DNA of 64,000 bases from Deltaproteobacteria bacterium (GTDB taxonomy: Bacteria; Myxococcota; JACPTQ01), in assembly GCA_016192705.1 (NCBI GenBank), contig JACPTQ010000014.1:15503-79502 (forward strand), given 5' to 3'. The position numbers and the translations under genes were made by a program. Shown one piece after another: positions 47,566 through 56,402 of this stretch. Every line of letters starts with the position of its first letter. Position 1 is the first letter of the stretch. The notes beneath the pieces were generated by a model. The model saw nothing but the letters and a program-made list of their open reading frames with translations. It was not told the origin of the DNA and ran no database searches.

Positions 47566-48486
47566 TCAGGAGCGCGGGTGCAGGCGATCGATGACGGATT
47601 TGAGGCGCTTGCGATCAACATGGGTGTAAATCTGCGTGGTCGCGATGCTTTGATGGCCGAGGAGAAGTTGCACGGAACGGAGGTCGGCGCCGCGTTCGAG
47701 GAGGTGCGTCGCGAAGGAGTGGCGGAGCGTGTGCGGAGAAAACGTCGCGACGATTCCGGCGTCGCGGGCGCGTCGGCGAAGCAATTTCCAAAAACCCTGG
47801 CGCGTCATCGCGCGTCCGCGCGGCGAGAGGAAAAGCGCGCTCTCGGTCGCGCGTCGGACGAATCGTGGTCGCGAGAGCTTAAGGTAGGCGCGAAGGGCGT
47901 CGAGCGCGATTTCGCCGACGGGCACGACGCGTTCCTTGCCGCCTTTCCCGCGGCAGCGCACGATGCCGCGCGTTTCGTCGACGCTGTTCATGGTGAGCGA
48001 CACGAGTTCGCTGACGCGGAGCCCGGTCGCGTAAAGGAGTTCGAGCATCGCGCGGTCGCGCAACGTCGCGCGGGTTTCCTTGGGCGGCGGCGCGAGGAGG
48101 CGTTCGACGTCATCGAGCGAAAGTGCATGCGGCAAGCGGCGCCCGGCTGGTGGAACCGCGACTTCGCGCGCGGGATCGTCGGTTGCGCCGAGCTCGTCGT
48201 GCGCATAGCGGTGAAGTGTGCGAACAGCCGAGAGGGCCCGCGCAATTGAGCGAAGGCCAAGCCCCCGGTGAGTGAGCGATGACACGAACCGGCGAACGTC
48301 GTCTTCAGTGGCCGCGGTCAGCGATGTTCGTCCCGACTTGTCGAGCGTCGCGCGATACGCGTCGAGGTCTGCGGCGTACGCGGTTACGGTGCGCGGCGAC
48401 AAGTTGCGTTCGAGTCGAAGGTGATCGAGGAATGCCGCGAGCTCGTCGATAAGCGCCACGTGAGCGACGATAGCCGGCCCAGGTGT
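47566..48486 (-). CDS. tyrosine recombinase, XerC/XerD family
   Basis: C-terminal catalytic region ..HTLRHSFATHLLERGADLRSVQLLLGHQSIATTQIYTHV.. with R..HxxR..Y residues; N-terminal core-binding domain begins near ..ALIDELAAFLDHLRLERNLSPRT. Upstream 75 track codons probably not translated. Confidence 0.8.
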   Translation of the reverse strand, partial: TPGPAIVAHVALIDELAAFLDHLRLERNLSPRTVTAYAADLDAYRATLDKSGRTSLTAATEDDVRRFVSSLTHRGLGLRSIARALSAVRTLHRYAHDELGATDDPAREVAVPPAGRRLPHALSLDDVERLLAPPPKETRATLRDRAMLELLYATGLRVSELVSLTMNSVDETRGIVRCRGKGGKERVVPVGEIALDALRAYLKLSRPRFVRRATESALFLSPRGRAMTRQGFWKLLRRRARDAGIVATFSPHTLRHSFATHLLERGADLRSVQLLLGHQSIATTQIYTHVDRKRLKSVIDRLHPRS

Positions 48487-48520
48487 TGATCGCAAAGAAG
48501 TTGCGCTGCCATGCGCGATG

Positions 48521-49378
48521 TTACATCTCGACGGTTTCGCGGATTGGACGTCCGGGAGCTTCGTTGCGAGTTTCAGGTCGTCCGCAAGGTTCAGCGTGAC
48601 CTGGTTGAAGGGGATGGTCAGTCCGTTCTCGTTGCAGATCCGGACGAGCGCCGTATGGACGTCCCGCAGGAGGTCCTCGCGTATCCCGGCGCACCGTCCG
48701 TCCGCGTCCAAAACGATTTCCAGGTCCAGGGAACTGCTGGCGGCCTTCGGCGCTCTCGAACACGACGAGCCATCGCCAAATCGGAGCGGGGTAAGGGTAG
48801 GCGCCGATGCGGAGGCGCGATTCAGTGGGCAACCCGTCGAGTGCGAGTTTCAGCGCGCGTCGCCGAAAGTGGGCTTTCGCGAGCCAGTACGCGACGACAA
48901 CGGCCCACGTGATCCCCGAAAGGACCACGCGTTCAGCTGGGAATTCGAGCGACAACACGATCCCCGCGAGGAAGAGGAACGGGAGAAAGGGGTCCATGAA
49001 GGCGACCAAATCCCACGAGACAAAGCGGCGAGACCAGCCGCGAAAGACTTGGGCGCCGTGGGAGTTTGTAATGTCGAGCAGGCTGTGGAGGAGGACGCCG
49101 GCGAGACCCGTGAGAAAGAGCGGCAAAAAACGGCTGTCGGGATAAATCGCCGTGAGCGTGGCCGCGACGGCAGCGGCCGTGAGCGGCATCCCGAAAACGG
49201 AGTGCGTAAAGGTTCGGTGGGCGCGGAGCGCGGCGGCGCCGCCTTTGGCTTTTGAGAAGAGATCGAGGTCAGAGAACGTCGCTGACAGGATGATGTTGAT
49301 TGTGGCGTGGGGGTCGGCCGTGTCGAGACCGAGGAACGACAGGCTTGCGCCGGCGAGAGCGTGGCTGACGGTATCCAC
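48521..49378 (-). CDS. membrane-bound metal-dependent hydrolase (DUF457 / YdjM-like)
   Basis: MDTVSHALAGASLSF..TFTHSVFGMPL..LHSLLDITNSHGAQVF pattern of His/Asp ligands in a small polytopic membrane protein; the last ~70 codons are low-complexity run-on. Confidence 0.55.
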   Translation of the reverse strand: MDTVSHALAGASLSFLGLDTADPHATINIILSATFSDLDLFSKAKGGAAALRAHRTFTHSVFGMPLTAAAVAATLTAIYPDSRFLPLFLTGLAGVLLHSLLDITNSHGAQVFRGWSRRFVSWDLVAFMDPFLPFLFLAGIVLSLEFPAERVVLSGITWAVVVAYWLAKAHFRRRALKLALDGLPTESRLRIGAYPYPAPIWRWLVVFESAEGRQQFPGPGNRFGRGRTVRRDTRGPPAGRPYGARPDLQRERTDHPLQPGHAEPCGRPETRNEAPGRPIRETVEM

Positions 49379-49475
49379 GCGCCTGGGTTACACGCGGGGG
49401 GCGATTTAGTCAAGCGAGTCGGAATCGGGGCGCATAGATTTATTGGGGAAACTGGTCGAAAGTGGTGGGTTGGGG

Positions 49476-49490
49476 TGTGACGGTGTCACA
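49476..49490. promoter_or_regulatory. perfect palindrome TGTGAC-GGT-GTCACA in divergent intergenic region (candidate operator)
   Basis: 6-bp arms that are exact reverse complements, 3-bp spacer, in a locally AT-richer intergenic segment; a TTGACA hexamer follows at 49499-49504. Confidence 0.3.
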
Positions 49491-49565
49491 AAATGTAGTT
49501 GACAGGTGGCCTATGTAGGCGGAGAATAAGGAGATATACGGAGTAGCGTTGAGAGCTTTGTATGG

Positions 49566-49907
49566 ATGAAAAAGGTGTCGGGGGATAGCGTGATTAATCG
49601 GTTTTTTGACCAGGTTCGGCAGAGCTGGGCCGATGCGGGTGAGTTCGCCCAATCGGTTAAGGAGCGTATTTGGAGTGGGCCGGAGGCGAGGCGCGTTCGT
49701 GCCCTCGCGATTCCGGCCGCGCCGAGCGCGACGCTTGTCGACAAGGCCAAGGCGTCGGTTGCGCTGACGCTCATCGGTGTTTTTGCTGGAATCGCGATTG
49801 CGTCGCTGTCGACCCTCGTGACGTCGCTGATTTTTATTTACTTGTTGGTTACGCGTGTCCTCGGGATTCGCATCGACCTCGACCCTGAGGCGATGCCCAA
49901 GTTCTGA
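49566..49907 (+). CDS. small hypothetical membrane protein (single C-terminal TM helix)
   Basis: 113-codon ORF with hydrophobic C-terminal segment ALTLIGVFAGIAIASLSTLVTSLIFIYLLV; no obvious SD. Confidence 0.35.
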   Translation: MKKVSGDSVINRFFDQVRQSWADAGEFAQSVKERIWSGPEARRVRALAIPAAPSATLVDKAKASVALTLIGVFAGIAIASLSTLVTSLIFIYLLVTRVLGIRIDLDPEAMPKF

Positions 49908-49920
49908 GACGGAGGCTAGG

Positions 49921-52900
49921 ATGAAAAAAGTTTTTGCCGCGGTGGGTTTCGTTGTCTGTGCGGTCTTCTTGGGTGCGTGCGAAGACGCGGCGCAAGTGGG
50001 TGGCCCCGCTGTGCGGCCATGCACGCAGGACCCCGATTGCCCGTCGGGGCAGGTGTGTGGTGCAGCGCGGCGATGCGAGCCGGTGGCGCGCGTGGTTGAC
50101 GCGGGGCCGGGCGCGGATGCGGATGCAGGGGCGGTTGCGGATACGGATGCCGGGGCGGTTGCGGATACGGATGCGGGTGCGGAGGCGGATGCGGGGGTGG
50201 TTGTGGACGCGGGTCCCGTCGGCGGCGCGTTCGGCACGTCGTGCACGCTCGACAGCGATTGCGAATCAGGGCTCTGCGTTGGGGAGCAACCGGAACCGGG
50301 CGTGTGTACGCAGTTTTGCGGCGATTGTCCGCTTGGGTGGACGTGTCGCGGGATTACGACACGCGGCGGCTCGCAGACCGCGTTTGTCTGCACGCCAATG
50401 GCACAAACGGTTTGTCGCGTCTGTTCGACCGATGGTGACTGCGGCTCGGGGACGCGTTGCCGCGACGTGCTTGGGGAGAAACGATGTTTGCAAGCGTGTG
50501 ATGCGGTGAGCTGCACGGGCGCGGCGTATACGTGCGTTGAATCGGCGTCACCGACGAATCCAGCGGCGACCGAGAAAAACTGCGCGCCGACGTCGGGGTC
50601 GTGCGTGCCGTGCACCGATAAAGATGGCGATGGGTATGGTGTCGGAACGGCGTGTCTGGGAGTCGATTGCAACGACAACGACCCGAACATCCATCCCGCG
50701 GCGGTCGAGGTCTGCGACGGAATCGACAACAACTGCAACAGCCAGACGGACGAGGGTTTCGACTTGCAGAGCGACCCGGCGAACTGCGGGGTGTGCGGTA
50801 CAACGTGCGACACGGGGCGTGGGCAGGCGTGTTGCGCGGGGGCGTGCGTCGCGCTTGGTTCGGCGATCGCGAATTGCGGCGCGTGCGGGGTTTCGTGTGT
50901 GGGCGTCGGCGCGGCGTGTTGCGGGGGCGGTTGCACGACGACGGTGTCGAACGCGGCGAACTGCGGGGCGTGTGGGCGCGCGTGTGACGTGGTTGCGGGC
51001 GAGATTTGCTGCGGGAGCGGGTGCGTCAATCGGCTGAACGACGACCAGAATTGCGGCGCGTGCGGAAACGTTTGCGGCGCGAACGAGAAGTGTTGTGGCG
51101 GAACGTGCACCGACGTTAAGGCGAACGCGGCGGCGTGCGGCGCGTGCGGTGTGACGTGCGATACGACCGCGGGCGAAGCGTGTTGTGACGGCGCGTGTAA
51201 GAACACGAAGACGGAGCACGATTTCTGCGGTTCGTGCACGACGGCGTGTGGCACGAGCGATTCGTGTTGCGCGGGGAGTTGTGCCGATCCGCAATCGGAT
51301 GAGGCCAACTGCGGTGGCTGTGGTGTGAAGTGCCCAGCGGGTGGGCTTTGTTGCGGTGCGGGGTGCGTCGATCCGTCGACGGACGTTGCGAATTGCGGGG
51401 CGTGCGGTGCGGCGTGTGCGTCGGGGAGTTTGTGCTGCCCGACGGGTGGCGCGGCGCCCGCAGGAACGTGTCGCGATCCGCAGAACGATGTCAACAACTG
51501 CGGTGGGTGCGGAAACGTCTGCGCGGCCGGCCAGACGTGCTGCGGGGGCGGTTGCAAGGACCTCCTCGCTGATGCGAACAACTGTGGGACGTGCGGAAAT
51601 GCGTGCGCGACGGGGCAAACCTGTTGTGGTGGCGCGTGCGTCGATCCGAACCTCGATGCCCCGAACGCGTCGGCGCCTTTTGATGACGCGAATTGCGACG
51701 GCGTCGATGGTGTCGCGGCGAAGTCAATTTTCGTCGATGCGCTGACGTCGTGCTCGCTGAACCTTGGCACGAAGGCGTGCCCAATGAAGACGATTCAAAT
51801 GGCGATCAACGTTGCCGCCGCATCGCTTGTGACCGCGACGCCCAAGGCGAGTGTCCTCGTTTCAGCGGCGACGTACAACGAGTCGCTTACGCTCAAGCGC
51901 GGTGTGAGCGTTTACGGTGGTTACAGCGCGACGCAGAATTGGGCGCGGAGCGCGAGCAACGTCGTCACAATCAACGGTGGGACGACCGCCGTTCGGACCG
52001 ATTCGGCGCAGACATTTAATGTTGCGACGGTGTTCGATCGCTTCACGATTCTTTCGGCCTCGAACACATCGCCGGGTGGCGCGTCGATCGGCGTGCTCGT
52101 GAAGAACGCGACGAGTGCGCTGGTTTTGCGAAACTTGACGGTGCAGGCCGGGAACGGTGGAAACGGGACCGACCAATCGTCGACGCGCGCGGCGACGGGC
52201 GATTCGGGCGGTGACGGGAACACGGGCGGCAACGGCGCGGAGGATTGCTCGCAGTCGGGTGCGGGACGCGGCGGCACGGGTGGATGGAGTTCGTGCGGAC
52301 GGTCGGGCGGGCGTGGTGGCTATGCGGCGTGCGGCTGGGCGATTGGCGAGACGGGGCCGAGCGGGACGGGGTCGTACCCGGGTTATGGCGGAAGTGGTGG
52401 TGCGGGCGGGAATCCGACGGGGTGGCCGAGCTGCAGCTCGACGACGTACGGCGCGGGCGGGAACGCGGGATCGAATGGGCGCGACGGGAGCGATGGGGTT
52501 GCGGGGAGCGGAACCGGCGTCGTGAATTCGAGCGGCGATTGGGTGGCGTCGAATGGAACGCCGGCGACATCGGGCACGTCGGGCGGCGGCGGTGGTGGCG
52601 GCGGTGGCGGTGGCGGTGGGGCGTCGACGCATTCGTGCGACTTCTGGTGTTCGCTCGGAATCTGCGATGACAACTTGGGCGGCGGTGGCGGTGGTGGTGG
52701 AGCGGGAGGCTGTTCCGGGAACGCGGGCGCGAGTGGCGGCGGCGGTGGCGGCTCGTTCGCGATTTATTTGTGGAACGCGTCGCCCACGGTGCAGTCGGTC
52801 GTCGGGCGCGCCGGGACCGGTGGCAAGGGCGGGCGCGGGCAGTCGGGCGGTTGGGGCGGATGGGGTGGCATCGGGCGGAGCGGGGGCTCGAAGGCGCCAG

Positions 52901-53142
52901 ACGACGACGGCGGCGGCGGTGGAAAGGGCGGAAACGGCGGTAGCGGTGGCAATGGCGGTTATGGCGCGGGCGGTGGCGGTGGGCCGTCGTACGGGCTCTT
53001 CCGCGCGAACGCGGCGTCGGCGCCGACGTTGTCCGGGAACAGTTGGGTCAAGGGGATCGCTGGAGCCGGAGGCTATGGGCCGGCGTCGAACAGTGGCGCG
53101 ACCGGCGTCGCGTCGAGCTGTAACGCCGGAACCTGCAATTAG
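49921..53142 (+). CDS. giant cysteine-rich repeat lipoprotein (MopE-like metal-binding motif, at least 10 tandem NCGxCG..CC.G.C repeats, Gly-rich C-terminus)
   Basis: SD GGAGG 5 nt upstream; lipoprotein signal [20 protein letters not shown]; motif [41 protein letters not shown]; about ten ~30-aa repeats; C-terminal region of poly-Gly runs. Confidence 0.65.
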
Positions 53143-53599
53143 GGCGGTCGTTCAGCGCGTCGCGCGGGCTTCGGTTTGCGTCGTCGAGGGCGGAAACGAT
53201 TGCGTGGTCGCCTCGATTGGGAACGGGTTTCTCGTGTTTCTTGGGGTTGCGCCCGACGACACACCCGACGATGTAAGCTGGCTCGCGGAAAAGATTGCGA
53301 CGTTGCGGGTCTTCGAAGATTCCGCCGGCAAGATGAATCGGTCGCTCGTCGACGTTGGCGGAAGCGCGCTGGTCGTTTCGCAGTTCACGCTTTTCGCCGA
53401 TTGTTCGCGTGGGCGTCGCCCGTTTTTTGGGGCGGCCGCAGCGCCGGTAGTCGCTGAACCGATGGTCGACGCGTTCGCCAAGGCCATCGGCGCATTTGTT
53501 CCCGGTGTGTCGACGGGGCGCTTCGGTGCGCAGATGGCGGTCGAGCTCGTCAACGATGGCCCGGTCACGATTTCGCTCGATTCGCGGCTCCGGATTTGA
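53138..53599 (+). CDS. dtd: D-aminoacyl-tRNA deacylase
   Basis: ..[59 protein letters not shown].. matches Dtd throughout. The conserved N-terminus aligns to codons starting at ATT 53138-53140, overlapping the upstream stop TAG. Confidence 0.8.
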
Positions 53600-53649
53600 C
53601 TTTGAGCAACGTGCTCGCCATCCTCTAAGAGGAGGGTGGAGACTCGGGA

Positions 53650-54831
53650 GTGATCCGAATTCGACCAGTTTTTTTTCTTTTTTTGGGGTGCACGTCGGTC
53701 ACTGCGTCGATGGGGCCGATGGGTCCGAGCGGAGACGCGGGATCCGTTGGAGCGCAGGGGGTTCCCGGTCCTTCGGGTGATGCTGGGCCGATGGGATTGA
53801 CAGGAATTGCCGGCCCGCCCGGTGACGCGGGACCGGCAGGGCCGCCGGGTCCTTCGGGAGACGCTGGGCCGCAAGGGCCTCCAGGCCCGTCTGGTGACGC
53901 CGGAGCGGACGGGAATTCTCGAATCTACGGGAGTGGTGTCGCGGGGGCGGTTGTTATTTCTGGAGATACGCTTTGGAGCGCATTTCCCCCGCCGAGCACG
54001 CAGTTCACGGATTTTACGGTGAATACTGGCGTTGAGCTTACCGTGACGAGCGGAACTGTGATTCGGTGTACGGGGACCTTCACGAACAACGGAACGATTT
54101 TTGTGTATTACGGCGTCTCCGGTGGCAATCGGCTACTGCAGGATAGCGACGCCGGCGCTCTTCCGCGCGTTCAATCGCCGCACCCCGGGTTCTCGTTGGC
54201 GCCAGCCGGATTTGGCCATTTCGGAAGCTCAGCCACACGTCAATACGGCGGGTCCGGTGGCAGTCCCATTTACCTGTTCGCCGCGCGAAACCTGACGCGG
54301 CCTGGTCCTTGGGGAGGTGGCGGCGGCGGGGGCGCCTATGCAGCGGGAGGTAATGGTGGCGGATCGCTTCTGGTTCTCGCGCGGACGGCCGTTGTAATTG
54401 GAGGATCGGGGATTATCAATGCGGATGGCGCGGGTCCGGTATGGGGCGGCGGCGGTGGCGGCGGTGGGATTGTGGTTCTTGCATCGGGCGGCTCCATCAC
54501 GAATTCGGGGGTGATCAGCGCGAAGGGCGGCGAAGGTGGATACAGCATTTCGCTTACCGCGGCAGGAGGCGGCGGCGGAGGAGGAATCGTTCACCTGATT
54601 GCGCCGAGTATTACACAGGGTACCGTCGTGGTTGCGGGTGGTGACGCCGGGAGCGGGGCGGAAGCTGTTACGGGCAATCCGCGTTACGCCGGTGGTGGCG
54701 GTGGAGCGTGCGGTGGTAGCGGCGGGACCGGAGGGACCGTATATGAAAGCGGTACCGAGTCAGTGGGCCAGTACGCGGGGACCAGCGGCTATTCCTTGAC
54801 CACATTGGAGGATCCGGCGTTTCATTTTTAG
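53650..54831 (+). CDS. collagen-like triple-helix repeat lipoprotein with Gly-rich beta-helix-like C-terminal domain
   Basis: GTG start; signal/lipobox-like [14 protein letters not shown]; about 22 uninterrupted G-X-Y triplets ([41 protein letters not shown]); then Gly-run-rich domain. Middle part is about 50-52% GC by hand count. Confidence 0.6.
53669..53684 (+). repeat. homopolymeric tract T8-C-T7 within signal-peptide codons of the collagen-like gene
   Basis: Read directly: TTTTTTTTCTTTTTTT encoding VFFLFL. Confidence 0.9.
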
Positions 54832-54923
54832 TGAAGTTGTTTCGTTCGCGCGCACCACGCGCTTTCGCCGCTTGAATTCGCGGGGCGGCTCATCGATGAT
54901 GCCGAGCCAAGAGGGCTTTGGCG

Positions 54924-56402
54924 ATGTCGAAACGAGTTGTGCAGATCGGCGTTCAGGAAGTTGCGGCGCGGGTTCGCGAGGCGCGCGAGGCAGAGCGCGA
55001 GTGGGCGCGGCGTGCGGCGTCGGAGCGTGCGGGCGTCATGCGCGGCGTTCGTGCGGCGTTTTTGGATGCGGCCGAGGCGATTGTCGATGCGACGGCGCGT
55101 GAGACGGGGAAGCCGCGCGCGGAGGCGTGGCTCGGCGATTTTATTCCAAACGTCGATTTGTTCGGCTATTGGATTAAGGAAGCGCCGCGACTTCAGCGCC
55201 CCGAGCGGGTGTGGCTAAACCCGATCAACTTTCCGCGCAAGCGCGCGACAATTGAGCTGGTCCCGCGCGGTGTCGTCGCTCTCATCACGCCGTGGAACTA
55301 TCCGGTGTCGATCCCGCTTCGCACGATCGTTCCGGCACTGCTCGCGGGGAATGCGGTCGTCTGGAAGCCGTCCGAAGTCGCGCCCGAAGTGGCTGGGCTC
55401 GTCGCAGACACTTTCGAGAAAGGTGGACTGCCGCGCGGATTGCTCACGACCGTGATGGGCGAAGGCGATGTCGGCGATGCCGTGGTGCGCGCTGAAGTTG
55501 ATCATGTGGTCTTCACGGGTGGTCTTGCGACCGGGCGCCTCGTCGTACGCGCTGCGGCGGAGCGGATGACGTCGTGTTCGCTTGAGCTCGGTGGAAAAGA
55601 TGCGGCGATTGTTTTGGACGATGCGAACCTCGACCGTGCGATTCCCGGGGTCGCGTGGGGCGCATTCACGAACGCGGGGCAAAACTGCGCGGGAATTGAG
55701 CGCGTTTTTGTGACGCGTGAGGTTTCGAAGAAATTCATCGACGGTCTCGTTGCGTACACGGCGACGTTGAAGTCGGGAAGCGACGTCGGGGCGCTGACGA
55801 CGGACAGGCAGTTCGAGATCGTCAAGGCGCATGTCGCCGATGCCGTTGAACGTGGCGGGAAGGTGCGGGTGGGCGGGAAGCCCGGCAGGGGAAAGCGCGA
55901 GTTCGAGCCGACGGTGCTTACCGATGTTGCGCGCGACGCGAAGGTTTTTACGGATGAGACGTTTGGACCGGTGGTGCCCGTTGAAGTCGTTGAGACCGCG
56001 GACGAGGCGGTTCGGCGCGCAAACGAGGCGGGTTACGGATTGACGGCGAGCCTTTGGACGGCGGATGAGGCGGGTGCGGTGAAGCGCGCACGGGTGCTGG
56101 AGTGTGGCGTCGTCAGCGTTAACAACCACGCGTTCACGGGCGCGGTGCCGTCACTGCCGTGGACGGGCGTCAAGGGATCGGGGCACGGGATCACAAATTC
56201 GAAGTATGCGTTTTTCGAATTGACGCGGCCGAAGACGCTTCTTGTCGATCGGCTCGGTGCGGCGCGAGAGCCGTGGTGGTTCCCTTACGGTTCGCGGGCG
56301 GAGGCGCTTGGGAAGGCGATGGTGGAAGTCATGCGCCACGGGCCGTCGCGCGTGCCGGGGCTCCTCGGTGCGTTTGCGTCGCGGTGGAAGGAGACGGAGT
56401 GA
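54924..56402 (+). CDS. NAD(P)-dependent aldehyde dehydrogenase
   Basis: ALDH motifs ..ELGGKDA.. (catalytic Glu region) and ..FTNAGQNCAGIER.. (catalytic Cys region). Confidence 0.85.
   Translation: MSKRVVQIGVQEVAARVREAREAEREWARRAASERAGVMRGVRAAFLDAAEAIVDATARETGKPRAEAWLGDFIPNVDLFGYWIKEAPRLQRPERVWLNPINFPRKRATIELVPRGVVALITPWNYPVSIPLRTIVPALLAGNAVVWKPSEVAPEVAGLVADTFEKGGLPRGLLTTVMGEGDVGDAVVRAEVDHVVFTGGLATGRLVVRAAAERMTSCSLELGGKDAAIVLDDANLDRAIPGVAWGAFTNAGQNCAGIERVFVTREVSKKFIDGLVAYTATLKSGSDVGALTTDRQFEIVKAHVADAVERGGKVRVGGKPGRGKREFEPTVLTDVARDAKVFTDETFGPVVPVEVVETADEAVRRANEAGYGLTASLWTADEAGAVKRARVLECGVVSVNNHAFTGAVPSLPWTGVKGSGHGITNSKYAFFELTRPKTLLVDRLGAAREPWWFPYGSRAEALGKAMVEVMRHGPSRVPGLLGAFASRWKETE

Follow-up and report, generated by a model that had tools for sequence, protein, structure and literature searches.

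A putative AUU start codon of the D-aminoacyl-tRNA deacylase gene dtd that overlaps the stop codon of an upstream lipoprotein gene

In the stretch of DNA analyzed here (the window, 64,000 nucleotides of contig JACPTQ010000014.1 from a Deltaproteobacteria bacterium of the Myxococcota), the dtd gene has ATT at the position where other Dtd genes have their start codon, and the last base of this ATT is the first base of the TAG stop codon of a co-directional gene for a putative lipoprotein. Comparison with a divergent relative that has the same junction leads us to favor, with moderate confidence, the view that dtd is AUU-initiated, weakly expressed and probably assisted by ribosomes that finish translation at the overlapping UAG. 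The features concerned are the following, in coordinates of the window.

49921–53142, + strand: upstream Cys-rich, Gly-rich putative lipoprotein gene, 1073 aa from ATG 49921; PF04885
53138–53599, + strand: dtd, predicted D-aminoacyl-tRNA deacylase, 153 codons plus TGA; PF02580, TIGR00256
53138–53140, + strand: ATT, proposed dtd initiation codon, aligned to Met1 of Dtd families and solved structures
53140–53142, + strand: TAG, stop codon of the upstream lipoprotein gene; T53140 is common to ATT and TAG

The dtd gene and its junction with the lipoprotein gene

The predicted Dtd protein matched the complete Pfam profile PF02580 (Tyr_Deacylase; E = 1.8e-49, positions 1–144 of 144), with profile position 1 falling on the Arg right after the Ile encoded by ATT. 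With the ATT start it also covered positions 1–145 of 146 of the NCBIfam equivalog TIGR00256, with a score of 151.7 bits where the cut-off is 101.5. Among solved Dtd structures the best sequence match had an E-value of 4.8e-32, and Met1 of the Aquifex Dtd (2dbo, MRAVIQRV) aligned to the Ile encoded by ATT. These three alignments bear out the sequence-only reading, which had placed ATT at the conserved Dtd N-terminus and over the upstream TAG; the span that it gave for the N-terminal segment, 53138–53160, begins correctly but ends one base short, since IRAVVQRV occupies 53138–53161. In an alignment of 34 Dtd sequences that included that of the window, R2, A3, Q6, R7 and V8 were invariant, as were the columns S81, Q82, F83, T84 and L85 and, further on, N139, G141, P142, V143 and T144. 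The latter two groups belong to SQFTL and NXGPVT (Gly-cisPro), which we take to be the Dtd active-site motifs, and the window's protein carries SQFTL and NDGPVT. An AF2 model of the product had a pLDDT of 94.4 and a pTM of 0.89, and residues 2–17 form strand 1 of the model, with a pLDDT of 97 there. The NCBI protein MBI3071154.1, of 153 aa, begins MRAVVQRV and starts at this ATT. It is an automatic, homology-guided call that lends no independent support, but the reading is thus already on record. A literature search found no paper tying dtd to an ATT start.

To place the ATT in the family, we collected the Met1-aligned codon of 160 other Dtd loci from genomes and metagenomes, all of them, among the matches listed, at most 63% identical to the window's Dtd. 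The codon was canonical in all 160 (ATG in 121, GTG in 34 and TTG in 5), showing that the Dtd N-terminus is positionally fixed in the family. Against this background, ATT is a derived state of a small clade.

At the junction, the upstream frame on the + strand reads ACC TGC AAT TAG, whereas the dtd frame reads GCA ATT AGG GCG GTC GTT CAG CGC GTC, encoding A I R A V V Q R V. The two co-directional genes therefore overlap by the 5 nt ATTAG (53138–53142). Such an overlap is impossible with an NTG start codon: to share its last base with the stop, the start has to end in T. Reversion to ATG is barred in the same way, since a G in place of T53140 would create ATG at the cost of the upstream stop and extend the lipoprotein by 105 aa in the window. 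Codons around the junction are non-preferred, at least by the usage of a hand-picked gene set: AAT makes up 27% of the codons for Asn and AGG 2.4% of those for Arg, and 8 of 34 stop codons are TAG. Together, the conserved Arg2 and the gene overlap force TAG and AGG, and the use of AAT instead of AAC is the sole free site that preserves ATT.

The upstream protein consists of six Stig1-like Cys-rich repeats (PF04885, otherwise a family name of plant stigma proteins) followed by a long Gly-rich C-terminal half. Its gene most likely starts at ATG 49921, not at the mechanically listed GTG 49855; ATG 49921 is preceded by GGAGG (−9.5 kcal/mol) and begins a signal peptide with a lipobox-like LGAC. When the C-terminal 500 aa were used as a query, the best matches outside the clade for which an identity was given were 31–40% identical and paralog-like, several of them from Myxococcota, and were probably swamped by Gly-rich words. 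The gene that follows dtd (53650–54831) encodes collagen triple-helix repeats (PF01391) with a Gly-rich stretch behind them; AGGAGG at 53630–53635 provides it with a very strong Shine-Dalgarno sequence, and its product has a hydrophobic N-terminus ending in LGC. Thus dtd is sandwiched between the genes of two Gly-rich proteins that are probably exported. Very long open reading frames on the minus strand and in other frames of 49440–53151, such as one of 776 aa at 49440–51770 (−), give the Pro/Ala/Arg-rich translations typical of GC-rich repetitive coding DNA, and almost certainly none of them is a gene. About 1 kb upstream of the lipoprotein gene lies a tyrosine recombinase gene (47566–48849, − strand; Phage_integrase with an N-terminal SAM-like domain). 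Downstream, an aldehyde dehydrogenase gene (54918–56402) is annotated at NCBI as encoding 492 aa (MBI3071156.1), which places its start at ATG 54924 and not at the mechanical TTG 54918. The nearest relatives of this enzyme outside the organism are only about 51–53% identical, many of the next matches being Polyangiaceae- or Polyangiales-named, indicating that the lineage is poorly sampled.

The start codon in two lineages

A 191-nt segment around the junction was 100% identical in three Logan assemblies from different runs (SRR12113426, SRR12113428 and SRR12113385). A Dtd protein search returned only two proteins above 63% identity, P0001 from the window's own organism and P0002 from L084, an unrelated JGI metagenome contig; scans of genomes and metagenome contigs, in which the window's own metagenome-assembled genome and L084 were absent, yielded, among the matches listed, only Dtd at 60% identity or less. 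Further members of the clade beyond L084 may exist. Between the window and L084, Dtd is 74% identical (dN 0.175, dS 0.92, dN/dS 0.19) and the lipoprotein 87% identical (dN 0.08, dS 1.0). L084 carries the same TGCAATTAGGGCG junction, in the context TGC AAT TAG GGC G, with ATT at 2052–2054 in the Met1 position, so the junction is identical despite a dS of about 0.9–1.0 between the lineages. The same T-to-G change would lengthen the L084 lipoprotein by 15 aa. The gene order lipoprotein, dtd, collagen-like gene is also kept in L084.

We compared the two sequences on either side of the ATT. In the 63 nt (21 codons) before it, 11 of the 15 substitutions fall at third positions of the lipoprotein frame, for which dN is 0.09 and dS 1.7, so that synonymous change in that frame is unsuppressed, contrary to what dual coding would lead one to expect. 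In the dtd frame the same 63 nt have a pN of 0.35 and a pS of 0.07, and there is therefore no dtd-frame constraint upstream of ATT. The putative N-terminal extension that this segment could encode (21 residues in the window, TERRRTAAPRVRPRTATRGRA in L084) is unconserved. Downstream, codons 2–22 of dtd have a dN of 0.18 and a dS of 0.49, with synonymous changes at codons 7, 9, 10, 15 and 18; this purifying selection places the true start at or upstream of 53138. Taken together, the comparison shows that purifying selection in the dtd frame starts at the ATT itself.

The first seven dtd codons (53138–53158; 2052–2072 in L084), ATT AGG GCG GTC/ATC GTT CAG CGC, show zero synonymous differences, against a dS of about 0.9 elsewhere. 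With so few codons this may be coincidence, or the initiation region may be under constraint.

The sequence-only reading had stated that no in-frame ATG, GTG or TTG exists near the conserved N-terminus. This holds from 14 codons upstream to 21 codons downstream of the ATT but fails beyond those limits, where three candidates are found.

53075–53077, + strand: ATG, 21 codons upstream; rival start with GGAG 9 nt upstream (−5.6 kcal/mol, 18th percentile)
53093–53095, + strand: GTG, 15 codons upstream; rival start, GCG in L084
53204–53206, + strand: GTG, 22 codons downstream; start chosen by the automatic caller, giving the 131-aa P0001; GAA in L084

Translation could begin at lineage-specific upstream codons, namely ATG 53075 or GTG 53093 in the window and GTG 2019 in L084, which would give Dtd an Arg-rich extension of 11–21 residues and make ATT an ordinary Ile codon. 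Such canonical codons are indeed present in frame, ATG 53075 has its GGAG, and canonical codons are far better initiators than AUU (PMC3592434; bioRxiv 10.1101/063800). However, none of these starts is positionally conserved: ATG 53075 is ACG in L084, where the window's GGAG and GGAGG have become GGGG and GGCGG, and GTG 2019, at codon −11 of L084, is GCG in the window and lacks a Shine-Dalgarno sequence (−1.7 kcal/mol). About one canonical codon per approximately 21 codons is expected by chance at this composition, and the extension is free of coding constraint in the dtd frame, as described above. An upstream start would moreover require independent solutions in two lineages, in a family whose 160 other loci all start exactly at the Met1 position. 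We consider it unlikely.

A start at the downstream GTG 53204, leaving the preceding part non-coding, is very improbable, even though, of the candidates, this codon is preceded by the strongest Shine-Dalgarno-like match (−7.4 kcal/mol, 5th percentile) and was the start called in the three Logan assemblies. Codons 2–22 are kept as protein, with synonymous changes, and the resulting 131-aa form lacks TIGR00256 profile positions 1–19 and strand 1, and with them the invariant R2, A3, Q6, R7 and V8. The GTG is GAA in L084, and the caller picked another position there, a TTG at codon 31 that yields 122 aa. The 131-aa and 122-aa products are gene-caller artefacts.

Loss of the start codon in a gene that is now silent or decaying in the clade would account for the absence of a canonical start at the conserved position and for the weak Shine-Dalgarno sequence, but we regard it as very unlikely. 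The frame is intact in two lineages at a dS of about 0.9 and a dN/dS of 0.19, the SQFTL and NXGPVT motifs are intact (NNGPVT in L084), and the TIGR00256 score is well above the equivalog cut-off. By these measures dtd, the predicted D-aminoacyl-tRNA deacylase gene, is intact and under selection.

Programmed +1 frameshifting at AAU-UAG, fusing Dtd to the lipoprotein, seems extremely unlikely: dtd does lie in the +1 frame at a slowly decoded stop that is followed by the rare codon AGG, but tRNA-Asn re-pairs poorly on AUU, a stimulatory Shine-Dalgarno sequence and any Rfam element are absent, and export as part of such a fusion would separate a tRNA-editing enzyme from its substrate.

A base-call or assembly error hiding a real ATG, which the sequence-only reading had kept as its alternative, has nothing in its favor beyond the rarity of ATT starts and can be dismissed, as four assemblies of the same organism (counting the window) agree, the divergent L084 has the same ATT/TAG, and a G at 53140 would also remove the lipoprotein stop. 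That reading had also held that ATG or GTG in orthologs would imply such an error; distant orthologs do have ATG, GTG or TTG, yet no error is implied, because L084, the close ortholog, has ATT.

Initiation signals and proposed mechanism

We next consider the signals from which initiation at the ATT could proceed.

53128–53130, + strand: weak Shine-Dalgarno-like GGA, 7 nt before ATT (−3.5 kcal/mol with the anti-Shine-Dalgarno)

The value of −3.5 kcal/mol lies at the 34th percentile of the window background; the corresponding site in L084 reaches −5.7 kcal/mol (17th percentile). The neighboring genes have GGAGG-type sites, with −9.5 kcal/mol for the lipoprotein ATG 49921 and −10.3 kcal/mol for GTG 53650 of the collagen-like gene. 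The local fold around the window's ATT is stable (−27.5 kcal/mol for 63 nt, 5th percentile). We considered an inhibitory hairpin at the ATT that both lineages would conserve and rejected it, since the fold is strong in the window only and ordinary in L084 (−20.9 kcal/mol). A sigma-70 promoter scan of 52700–53750 found none, and an Rfam scan of 52800–53800 with E-values up to 1 returned nothing. Two terminator-like matches inside dtd did not rise above shuffle level. The weak Shine-Dalgarno sequence and the stable fold in the window are indirect hints that dtd may depend on upstream translation.

In the mechanism that we propose, AUU 53138–53140 would be decoded by initiator tRNA as fMet, giving the canonical MRAVVQRV N-terminus. 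Given the inefficiency of AUU and the weak Shine-Dalgarno sequence, most initiation events would be owed to ribosomes fresh from termination at the overlapping UAG, where the lipoprotein gene ends. The P site of such a post-termination ribosome would hold AAU, one nucleotide from AUU. Terminated ribosomes might start again on the AUU themselves, or their presence might keep the site unfolded so that new ribosomes can bind, and both would amount to translational coupling; the two models, ribosome re-use and RNA unfolding, have been reviewed (PMC12548453), and both would fit the ATTAG junction. The ATT would probably be held in place by conflict, as its T also opens the upstream stop codon. That dtd starts at AUU, is coupled and is expressed at a low level is what we infer. 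The sequence-only reading had raised AUU initiation, possibly coupled; the comparison adds support, through the selection boundary at ATT and because no canonical start occupies the same position in both lineages, but stops short of proof.

One base of the junction is free of the conflict. The T of AAT alone separates ATT from ACT, and its retention in two lineages at a dS of about 1 may well be due to chance, the likelihood of which we put somewhere between appreciable and nearly even. Coupling a cytosolic enzyme to a secreted lipoprotein also has no obvious functional logic. We hold it to be rather improbable that ATTAG is a functional device, in which Dtd synthesis would be obligatorily tied to upstream termination, perhaps IF3-sensitive as for infC, and evolutionarily locked. 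If it were one, the level of the Dtd proofreading enzyme would be linked to the state of the initiation machinery.

Relation to known systems and implications

Initiation at AUU is inefficient, amounting to 1–2% of that at AUG in one study (bioRxiv 10.1101/063800) and lying 6–8-fold below AUG/GUG in a different reporter (PMC3592434). A reporter with the infC start site behind a translated first cistron was expressed about twice as strongly as the AUU construct with a single cistron (PMC3592434). The two confirmed AUU-initiated chromosomal genes of E. coli, infC (encoding IF3) and pcnB, resemble dtd in having AUU at the homology-defined N-terminus; in both, AUU limits translation, and infC also closely follows a translated cistron (PMC3592434; bioRxiv 10.1101/063800). 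The infC gene differs, however: its Shine-Dalgarno sequence is usable, a 3-nt gap lies between the preceding stop codon and its start, and its AUU acts as the sensor for IF3 autoregulation, whereas the AUU of dtd shares a base with the stop and its Shine-Dalgarno sequence is weak.

The ATC start of dnaA and the CTG start of rpsL in Deinococcus are a second parallel: in each case the conserved N-terminus of a conserved housekeeping protein begins at a non-NTG codon shared within a clade, the preceding residues are unconserved, and automatic callers give heterogeneous, wrong N-termini. The Deinococcus starts rest on peptides, including a labelled N-terminal peptide for dnaA (PMC2830850), whereas the dtd start rests on a comparison of two lineages. 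For Enterococcus faecalis ebpA, likewise, an in silico prediction favored an ATT start over the downstream one that had been annotated; mutagenesis showed that it lowers expression relative to ATG (PMC4447247). Unlike that of dtd, the ebpA start does not overlap the stop codon of a preceding gene.

[quoted passage not shown] The dtd junction resembles the ATGA and TGATG termination-reinitiation pairs (PMC6728339, PMC10666635, PMC12548453) in that the genes are co-directional, the start adjoins the upstream stop and the Shine-Dalgarno sequence is weak or absent, but it differs in its 5-nt ATTAG overlap, a geometry closed to NTG starts. Coupled pairs are often subunits of one complex, a correlate and not a defining property, whereas the lipoprotein and the cytosolic Dtd are unrelated in function. 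AUU starts and translational coupling are both already established, and dtd adds a new example, with the minor twist of an ATTAG overlap that locks a weak start.

These observations indicate that a near-universal housekeeping gene can be retained through substantial divergence even though its start codon is non-canonical, in which case standard gene callers yield truncated, non-functional-looking proteins, here of 131 aa and 122 aa in place of the real 153 aa. The junction may also serve as a natural test case for the efficiency of post-termination re-initiation on near-cognate codons, and for the question of whether a gene can be trapped with a weak start by a stop codon that overlaps it.
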